Made by a program: the position numbers and the translations under genes. The notes under the pieces are model-generated. The model did not search any database. It had not been told where the DNA came from and was given only the letters and a program-made list of their open reading frames with translations. A DNA stretch of 8,473 nt from a virus (taxonomy: Duplodnaviria > Heunggongvirae > Uroviricota > Caudoviricetes). Numbering within the stretch: position 1 is the stretch's first letter; the number at the start of each line of letters is the position of its first letter. The stretch covers positions 1 through 8,473 of the IMG/VR virus record IMGVR_UViG_2663762857_000030; one strand, given 5' to 3'. Below, in pieces: positions 494-1,439 of the stretch.

Positions 494-694
494 ATGGCTG
501 GAACACAGCATACCCCACGTCTGGCGCACACACAAACTGCTTTTGTGTGGCGTTTTCTGGCACTAAGTGCCGGAGAATCTCAAATCATCCACGTAACCGC
601 CTGGACGGAACGCGAAGCGCGTAGCCGTTGCCCGTCCGGTTGTGTTGCTGTATTCGCCGCCCGTATTCGTCAGGAGGTGTGCCATGTGCAATAA
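494..694 (+). CDS. Small protein (66 aa), possible Icd-like (host cell division inhibitor-like) protein of P4-type satellites
   Basis: ATG at 494 with AGGAG Shine-Dalgarno at 481-485 (8-nt spacer); stop TAA 692-694. It is the 3' part of the long track ORF 14..694, which is otherwise antisense to the regulator gene. Motifs FVWRFLA ... TEREAR ... FAARI match my recollection of Icd-like proteins; unverified. Confidence 0.45.
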   Translation: MAGTQHTPRLAHTQTAFVWRFLALSAGESQIIHVTAWTEREARSRCPSGCVAVFAARIRQEVCHVQ

Positions 695-914
695 AACCAC
701 ACCGGACGCAGCAGAAGAAGCAATGCAAATACTGATACGTGCGCTCGTTGATGTTACCCACATGGTGGAGATTATGGAGAGAAAATCACAGTCGGAGCAC
801 GAAAAAAGAAAACTTAAAACAATAAAAATAATTGCCAAAAACTCGCTGATAAAAGTTACAGACATCCTTAATGAGGACATTAAAAGAATAAGGGAGAAAA
901 TTTGTGATGCATAA
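684..914 (+). CDS. Hypothetical protein (76 aa), predicted mostly helical, Lys/Glu-rich C-terminus
   Basis: ATG 684 preceded by AGGAGGT (673-679); overlaps the Icd-like stop. The 3' half lies in a visibly AT-rich patch. No family recognised. Confidence 0.5.
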   Translation: MCNKTTPDAAEEAMQILIRALVDVTHMVEIMERKSQSEHEKRKLKTIKIIAKNSLIKVTDILNEDIKRIREKICDA

Positions 915-1134
915 AATCCCTTTTGAAGTATTAATCCACTCTGAAAACGCATTAATTAAAGCACGCGAAATGAATGCGTTGTTAATTAAATTAATTGAAG
1001 TGCCGGAAGGTGGCGAAGATCATTCATCATTAATGTTTGCCGCTGTTCAGACATTATTGACACCTGTTATTGATGAACTCAATAAGGCTATGGCAATTCA
1101 CGAGAATAATAAAGCGCCCCACACCGGAGAATAA
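907..1134 (+). CDS. Hypothetical protein (75 aa)
   Basis: ATG 907 (alternative GTG 904) after AGGGAG at 891-896; overlaps the upstream stop (912-914) by 8 nt, suggesting translational coupling. Entirely in the AT-rich patch. No family recognised. Confidence 0.5.
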   Translation: MHKIPFEVLIHSENALIKAREMNALLIKLIEVPEGGEDHSSLMFAAVQTLLTPVIDELNKAMAIHENNKAPHTGE

Positions 1135-1139
1135 AAATA

Positions 1140-1439
1140 ATGAAACTTAAATATTCTGGCTTAACTGCCAGTGGCAAAACTCGCACTAAATTCATGCGCG
1201 GTGATATTTACCGCGACCAGTACGGCGGCACGGTAATGATTAAGGGCGTGGAGGAACGGCGCGTAACCTACCGTCGTGAAGGCTACGAATATGATTGCGT
1301 GATGCCTGTTTATCAGTTCGATCGTGATTTTTCTCTGGTGCAGGCCGTACCGCGTAACGTGCCCACCAGCAGGGAGAAAGCACGCGCCAATATTCAGGAA
1401 ATAAAAAAGATGCTTAACGTATTCAGGGGTAAGAAATGA
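1140..1439 (+). CDS. Hypothetical protein (99 aa), immediately upstream of and coupled to the primase gene
   Basis: ATG 1140 with GGAGA upstream; the stop TGA 1437-1439 overlaps the primase ATG 1436 (ATGA overlap). No family recognised. Confidence 0.55.
   Translation: MKLKYSGLTASGKTRTKFMRGDIYRDQYGGTVMIKGVEERRVTYRREGYEYDCVMPVYQFDRDFSLVQAVPRNVPTSREKARANIQEIKKMLNVFRGKK

Follow-up and report, generated by a model that had tools for sequence, protein, structure and literature searches.

The genes between icd and the primase

The stretch of DNA considered here (the window: 8,473 bases, positions 1 to 8,473 of the IMG/VR virus record IMGVR_UViG_2663762857_000030) contains the greater part of a phage satellite, a phage-inducible chromosomal island (PICI) of Gram-negative bacteria, of the type of EcCICFT073, the island of Escherichia coli CFT073. 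Its gene order is that of EcCICFT073, and positions 1109-7871 are 94.8% identical to that island in DNA sequence (blastn of the window). The subject is a group of three small open reading frames, ORF1, ORF2 and ORF3, lying between an Icd-like gene and the gene of the Pri-Rep replicase (coordinates in Table 1). Gene content and order identify the region as the distal portion of an early operon, that of an EcCICFT073-type PICI which has tqsA as its insertion site; if EcCICFT073 is a guide, AlpA would switch this operon on after helper-phage induction. A near-identical island is found in tqsA of strain 300033, where int and alpA, which lie outside the window here, can be seen, and where both halves of tqsA are annotated as pseudogenes.

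A sequence-only reading of this DNA had taken the three frames for an AT-rich cassette of unrecognised genes, separately acquired and perhaps directed against the helper phage or the host. The lengths (76, 75 and 99 amino acids) and the two overlaps that it gave are exactly right: ORF1 and ORF2 overlap by 8 nt, and the stop codon of ORF3 and the start codon of the primase share the ATGA at 1436-1439. Two further junctions can be added, an 11-nt overlap of the Icd-like gene with ORF1 and a 5-nt gap between ORF2 and ORF3. With each junction either an overlap or a gap of 5 nt, the genes from icd-like through ORF1, ORF2 and rgdR (ORF3; see below) to pri-rep are most likely co-transcribed and translationally coupled.

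ORF3 is, on sequence evidence, an orthologue of RgdR. It carries the Pfam domain DUF4222 at residues 17-68 (84 bits against a gathering cut-off of 27; E 5.3e-24), is 93% identical over 99 amino acids to the protein that RefSeq annotates as RgdR in the O157 strain 380-94, and is 86% identical to C1493 of EcCICFT073 (CFT073). The same 93% identity, with 7 residues differing, separates it from RgdR (ECs1581) of O157:H7, encoded in OI-51 / CP-933C, which is the capsid-forming PICI (cf-PICI) EcCIEDL933. ORF3, ECs1581 and C1493 are alike in length (99 amino acids), in having DUF4222, in the placing of an RGD motif at residues 20-22 (R20-G21-D22 in ORF3, ...KFMRGDIY...) and in overlapping the replicase start. 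The protein is strongly basic, with an isoelectric point (pI) of 10.05; its gene is present in 1060 of 5426 complete E. coli genomes (megablast). Sequence and profile searches with RgdR against the PDB gave chance-level matches only.

RgdR has a published function. It activates the LEE1 promoter (LEE, locus of enterocyte effacement), represses motility and increases Congo red binding (Flockhart et al., PMC3378721; see also PMC10877973); it binds DNA weakly and non-specifically, and its RGD motif is reported to be needed for activation of type III secretion (PMC3378721). Host gene expression is altered in an ecs1581 mutant without helper induction (PMC3378721), a phenotype of uninduced cells that implies some basal expression of rgdR. 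All E. coli PICIs analysed by Fillol-Salom et al. encode RgdR (PMC6092414). The setting here may differ from that of the O157 protein in one respect: the host of ORF3 may lack the LEE. DUF4222 is not restricted to satellites: a lambdoid prophage of E. coli CFT073 has a DUF4222 gene (locus L138, 15192-15431) of 79 amino acids, 29% identical to the RgdR core, which adjoins xis and has no relative of ORF2 beside it.

ORF2 matches phrog_2196 (E 3.6e-10), as do all 18 of 18 diverse aligned members of its family, which is called the c family here. Its homologues, from Escherichia and Shigella, form 120 clusters that reach down to 51% identity, and most full-length members are 75 amino acids long; a profile search with the family through 1.84 billion representative proteins returned 14 relatives, all of them small and none fused to a known domain. 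At least four allelic groups can be told apart: the ORF2 type, the EcCICFT073 type (41% identical), the EcCIEDL933 type and a Klebsiella cf-PICI type. The AlphaFold2 model is a two-helix hairpin (helices 6-31 and 39-69; predicted local distance difference test score, pLDDT, 81). ORF2 is acidic, with a pI of 5.4, and c-family proteins range from 4.9 to 5.4, against 10.05 for RgdR.

ORF1 matches phrog_5146 (E 1.6e-8) and has 24 homologue clusters, in Escherichia only. It too is modelled as a two-helix hairpin (helices 9-34 and 38-75; pLDDT 86.5) and has a pI of 8.6; paralogy of ORF1 and ORF2 was considered and rejected, hhalign of ORF1 against the ORF2 family showing none. The statement that none of the three genes is recognisable fails for ORF3, which is RgdR; ORF1 and ORF2, which are functionally uncharacterised, fall into families without known function.

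All three are, to judge from their pattern of substitution, genuine genes: median pairwise ratios of nonsynonymous to synonymous substitution (dN/dS) are 0.38, 0.20 and 0.38 for ORF1, ORF2 and ORF3, and nearly all pairs lie below 1. It might still be supposed that ORF1 and ORF2, being short, outside any Pfam family and set in AT-rich sequence, are spurious frames in an AT-rich spacer. The ratios of 0.38 and 0.20, with no compared pair reaching 1, the constancy of length in most full-length homologues down to 51% identity, the confident structure predictions, the PHROG matches of both and the conserved overlapping junctions make this exceedingly improbable, and the present data refute it.

An invariant order before the replicase

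Two samples of loci bear on how constant this arrangement is. The first is anchored on ORF2 and consists of 46 IMG/VR loci and the window, 47 in all. rgdR follows in 47/47, at a gap of 5 nt in 44; the overlap of rgdR with the replicase gene is 4 nt in 44/47, and the upstream gene, whichever it is, overlaps ORF2 by 8 nt, again in 44/47. Replicase matches in this sample were to a primase (31), to DUF927 (5) and to a RepA helicase (15). The reverse sample is anchored on RgdR and comprises 80 loci, of which 71 are non-redundant and extend upstream: a c-family gene stands directly upstream of rgdR in all 71, with a gap of 5 nt in 70, and rgdR overlaps the replicase gene by ATGA in 70/71, regardless of which of the three replicase types is present. 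In every E. coli-type PICI locus sampled, the c-family gene, rgdR and the replicase gene are an invariant coupled module. (A technical note: the wide c-family alignment is too divergent to seed a locus scan, and a scan of GTDB genomes with RgdR yielded two loci only, the peptide patterns being too strict.)

Overlaps at the gene boundaries (684-694 and 907-914 in the window, and the corresponding junctions in loci L010-L137) are kept regardless of the upstream neighbour: in front of the c gene the overlap is 8 nt, with ...ATGCATAA, and in front of the replicase it is ATGA. Such junctions have the look of favoured sites at which modules are exchanged by recombination.

Outside satellites, the genes are scarce. 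Searched by tblastn against 50,697 phage records, RgdR gave one weak match, ORF2 one match and ORF1 none, and both of the matched records are small (8.6 kb and 16.5 kb); among plasmids, tblastn found no real match to any of the three. The genes are satellite-specific, essentially absent from phages and plasmids. The AT-rich block formed by most of ORF1 and by ORF2 is detectable in 195 of the 5426 complete E. coli genomes, always in the chromosome, and is found at no less than 80% coverage (ORF1 and ORF2 together) in 43.

A variable slot behind icd

The interval between icd and the c gene is of a different nature: it shows 29 architectures in 63 RgdR-anchored loci and ranges from no gene to 1.6 kb. 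The genes found there are of 61-154 amino acids and come from a handful of families without known function: phrog_1478, 3672, 5146, 24341, 2512 and 340. Among related islands it is this position, just behind the Icd-like gene, that varies; a c-family gene and rgdR are constant. ORF1 is the only optional gene of the three, present in 8/63 of these loci and exclusively beside c alleles of the ORF2 type.

ORF1 is nevertheless not a newcomer to the slot. Positional homologues in EcCICFT073 and in locus L007, which like ORF1 match phrog_5146, stand after icd and before the c gene, and the EcCICFT073 gene is 39% identical to ORF1. A homologue at the same position in the prototype island marks ORF1 as a diverged allele rather than as foreign or new cargo. 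ORF1 and ORF2 alike are new alleles within families of satellite genes that were already catalogued, and the prototype island has homologues of both at the corresponding positions.

The early operon of EcCICFT073 reads icd, phrog_1478, phrog_5146, phrog_24341, phrog_2196, rgdR, pri. The window has the same gene families in the same order, with the same style of junction, and its 94.8% DNA identity to EcCICFT073 runs from the last 26 nt of ORF2 on; it differs in lacking the phrog_1478 and phrog_24341 genes and in having alleles of the other two families that are diverged (39% identity for phrog_5146, 41% for phrog_2196) and more AT-rich. A looser parallel is offered by satellite P4, whose epsilon gene product acts on the helper's repressor. 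There too small genes (epsilon, orf151) precede a D5-type primase, the alpha primase, in a satellite early operon, yet no sequence relationship of ORF1 or ORF2 to them was detected (Pfam, PHROG, PDB); distant homology between PICIs and P4 is limited to AlpA, Pri-Rep and Int (PMC6092414). With the defence hotspots of satellites (P4, PICI accessory regions) the locus has in common a variable slot between conserved genes; unlike them, its slot holds small genes of few families, and none of the three window genes matches PADLOC.

The AT-rich block

The low GC content noticed by eye between 770 and 1140 is confirmed by windowed computation: GC is 0.345 there, against 0.492 for the whole window, about 3 standard deviations below the mean. 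The lowest 371-nt stretch anywhere in the window is 802-1172 (GC 0.334; mean 0.494, standard deviation 0.050), and the best AT-rich segment is 802-1155, with GC 0.325. The dip covers only ORF2 and the 3' two-thirds of ORF1. A "three-gene" AT-rich cassette is therefore too wide a description: it fits ORF2 and the 3' part of ORF1, and fails for ORF3, which is island-like in composition (GC 0.480; GC at third codon positions, GC3, 0.53), and for the first 86 nt of ORF1 (684-769; GC 0.477), which are of normal GC and shared with other islands. The AT-rich segment nearly coincides with 713-1108, which has no DNA similarity to EcCICFT073 (blastn) and is bounded by the conserved icd/ORF1 junction at 673-712, the only upstream match, and by the last 26 nt of ORF2. 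Block 713-1108 is, as the alignment presents it, a recombinationally exchanged module, an allelic replacement relative to the prototype island.

If this module is merely another allele, why is it so rich in AT? The low GC is mostly a matter of synonymous codon choice. The GC of ORF2 is 0.378, where its amino acids and the codon usage of the island would lead one to expect 0.474 ± 0.020 (z -4.8); its GC3 is 0.324, where 0.530 is expected. Together with ORF2, the deeply diverged E. coli alleles designated c_L7, c_L8 and c_L2 show this codon-level bias, with z between -3.8 and -4.8; RgdR (z -0.4) and the Klebsiella-type allele lack it. Kept across alleles at 13-41% protein identity, it makes recent acquisition unlikely, and suggests either that AT-richness is maintained or that the alleles draw on a common gene pool.

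Searches for signals in this DNA were negative. Scans of 250-1600 for promoters, terminators and repeats returned nothing above chance inside the cassette, and Rfam recognises no RNA family in the region. The AT-rich block was also considered as the replication origin of the island, and this is ruled out by the location of the iteron origin at 3203-3435.

What the module might do

The account that we hold to be, on balance, the probable one takes the region as part of a PICI early operon, with ORF2 and RgdR as a fixed module, ORF1 as a modulator and low GC as a damper on expression. ORF2 and RgdR would act together as a regulatory or licensing module placed before whichever replicase the island carries, either as an acidic-basic pair of partners or as a pair of factors that determine how host and island are transcribed once induction begins. 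ORF1 would be an accessory gene with a modulating effect, its target possibly the helper or the host. Low GC would keep rgdR and pri poorly expressed, or silenced by H-NS, during quiescence of the island.

Several observations weigh against this account. Neither Pfam nor NCBIfam has anything beyond chance for ORF1 or ORF2; sequence and profile searches of the PDB with the two yielded chance-level matches only, and Foldseek comparison of their AlphaFold2 models with the PDB found generic helical hairpins, none at E <= 1e-3. No plus-strand σ70-like promoter was found within 250-1600. The H-NS idea draws on base composition; matches to the H-NS motif TCGATAAATT number 9 where 9.7 are expected, which is no enrichment. 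One and the same RgdR allele (100% identical) is found beside a c_L7-type allele and beside alleles of the ORF2 type that are 100% and 73% identical: identical RgdR next to very different c alleles gives no indication that ORF2 and RgdR have co-evolved tightly at a specific interface. Finally, in vB_KppS-Ant (LR881103.1; 16.5 kb) a c-family gene (locus L009, 9736-9954) stands directly before the primase gene with no rgdR between them, and the pairing of c gene and rgdR is hence not obligatory outside E. coli. vB_KppS-Ant was deposited as a phage and has integrase, primase, capsid, portal and terminase genes; from this gene content it looks like a capsid-forming PICI.

What other accounts can be given? 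The AT-rich DNA might itself act in cis, as an H-NS nucleation site, a transcriptional roadblock or an internal promoter for rgdR and pri, with the ORFs secondary. The depressed GC3 of ORF2, recurring in three deeply diverged E. coli alleles, is what one would look for in that case, and so are a block with the lowest GC of the 8.5-kb window and a basal expression of rgdR. Purifying selection on ORF1 and ORF2 as proteins speaks otherwise, as do the want of a plus-strand promoter-like site, of H-NS motif enrichment and of significant repeats or RNA families in the block, and the existence of a Klebsiella-type allele that is not AT-rich; we regard a primarily cis-acting role as fairly unlikely. 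A somewhat smaller likelihood attaches to the proposal that ORF2 and RgdR are replication accessory proteins (origin-remodelling factors, or loaders or regulators of the replicase) and that the effects of RgdR on the LEE and on motility are side effects of a DNA-binding replication factor. That the coupling by ATGA extends to three unrelated replicase types cuts both ways: since c gene and rgdR invariably precede the replicase in this order, it ties the pair to replication, as would the weak DNA binding of RgdR and the presence of a single-stranded DNA-binding protein (SSB) and an iteron origin in the same module, and yet a pair that can precede any of three replicases is less likely to be the specific protein partner of one of them. 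The c gene of vB_KppS-Ant does without rgdR, the rgdR mutant alters host gene expression in uninduced cells, and homology to known families of initiators or loaders is lacking.

The proposal of a separately acquired three-gene cargo cassette acting against helper phage or host defences now seems quite unlikely. As one unit of cargo the three genes fall apart at once, ORF3 being a published regulator and a core gene of these islands and the ORF2 family being represented in 71/71 loci; ORF1, offered as new cargo, has its positional homologue in the prototype island, and AT-richness, taken as a sign of separate acquisition, is a bias that three old and deeply diverged E. coli alleles of the ORF2 family have in common. 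If cargo is to be known by atypical composition and by absence from related elements, then ORF1 and ORF2 are atypical in composition but have homologous genes with the same bias at the same positions in related islands, and ORF3 shows neither mark. The sequence-only reading was itself to be given up in the face of homology to replication accessory proteins conserved in all related satellites: the conservation named there, as distinct from a role in replication, is found for ORF2 and ORF3, because a family member stands upstream of rgdR in all 71 loci and RgdR is core. What can be said for cargo is that the position of ORF1 is hypervariable, that 713-1108 is a low-GC mosaic replacement, that ORF1 and ORF2 are small and uncharacterised, and that the screen of EcCICFT073 for interference covered only genes downstream of the origin (PMC6739421). 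On the other side, at E <= 0.1 PADLOC matches none of the three proteins, and a known interference gene, rpp, is already present further downstream in the island. Homology to defence or anti-defence proteins did not emerge, and nothing found here points to defence; an anti-helper or anti-defence role is possible, mainly for ORF1. The region is an ordinary variant of a known satellite operon, not foreign anti-phage cargo.

A more specific version of the preferred account, in which the region is a PICI early operon with a fixed ORF2-RgdR module, is a good deal more speculative. The reported phenotypes of RgdR (raised LEE expression, raised Congo red binding, reduced motility) look like those of cells that have lost H-NS function. 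The phrog_2196 hairpin and RgdR might form a satellite-specific control module, placed before any replicase, that links induction to a rewiring of host transcription, with RgdR as an antagonist of H-NS and ORF2 as its modulator. This we think doubtful.

Other features of the island

The remaining features of the window are those of an EcCICFT073-type (Rpp-type) PICI and are met in the order proper to that type: pri-rep with the origin downstream of it, SSB, PerC, and Rpp with cos sites (Table 1). A 78-nt inverted repeat, 81% complementary, flanks the Rpp homologue at 6743-6820 and 7478-7555; its arms resemble coliphage DNA at 93-96% identity and probably correspond to the pair of cos sites that EcCICFT073 is reported to have. 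At 4884-6286 this island, of a type that uses the capsids of its helper, has genes for a major capsid protein like λ E and a head decoration protein like λ D, without portal, protease or terminase genes, and EcCICFT073 has the same set. In the divergent intergenic region between ylcI and icd there is an exact 11-nt direct repeat, TGTGATTCAGT, at 329-339 and 374-384, as well as an 11-nt inverted repeat whose arms, 292-302 and 358-368, match perfectly. This layout is operator-like and could be a control site of the early operon.

Table 1. Genes and other features of the window, in order along the sequence
Feature	Position	Strand	Remarks
YlcI/YnfO gene		-	upstream of the Icd-like gene
Icd-like gene, 66 aa	494..694	+	first gene of the plus-strand run; NCBIfam phage_ICD_like (E 5.7e-18); phrog_1743, phrog_29966
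ORF1, 76 aa	684..914	+	phrog_5146; an optional occupant of the variable slot
Mosaic allelic-replacement block relative to EcCICFT073	713..1108		blastn; nearly coincides with AT-rich 802-1155
ORF2, 75 aa	907..1134	+	ATG at 907; phrog_2196, "c family"; core gene directly upstream of rgdR
ORF3 (rgdR), 99 aa	1140..1439	+	DUF4222; coupled to the primase by ATGA
Pri-Rep replicase	1436..3190	+	D5_N, DUF5906, Pox_D5 (Pfam and PHROG matches)
Iteron-type replication origin	3203..3435		at least 12 copies of (C/T)TGTCTACC or its complement GGTAGA(C/T)A, in both orientations
Genes 3' of the primase		+	in order: 92-aa gene, SSB, PerC, λ E-like capsid, D-like decoration, 144-aa Rpp homologue
Rpp (redirecting phage packaging) homologue, 144 aa	6875-7309	+	RppC, PDB 6hlk, E 5e-31
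tqsA N-terminal remnant (autoinducer-2 transporter gene)	8327-8473	-	the island sits in tqsA

Implications

Much of what the locus holds was known already: a virulence-modulating regulator, RgdR, and two catalogued families of hypothetical proteins in a well-described family of satellites. Literature searching turned up no paper on the function of the genes that separate icd from rgdR. What is added is comparative: a module that is invariant regardless of the replicase that follows it, a conserved synonymous AT bias upstream, and a hypervariable slot before the module. The most useful lead is the combination of the invariant order c gene, rgdR, replicase with the conserved AT bias at the level of codons. 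If RgdR should be an antagonist of H-NS, the AT-rich codon usage upstream would be a built-in H-NS silencer of rgdR and pri, and ORF1 and the other genes of the slot would be fast-evolving specificity factors against helper or host.

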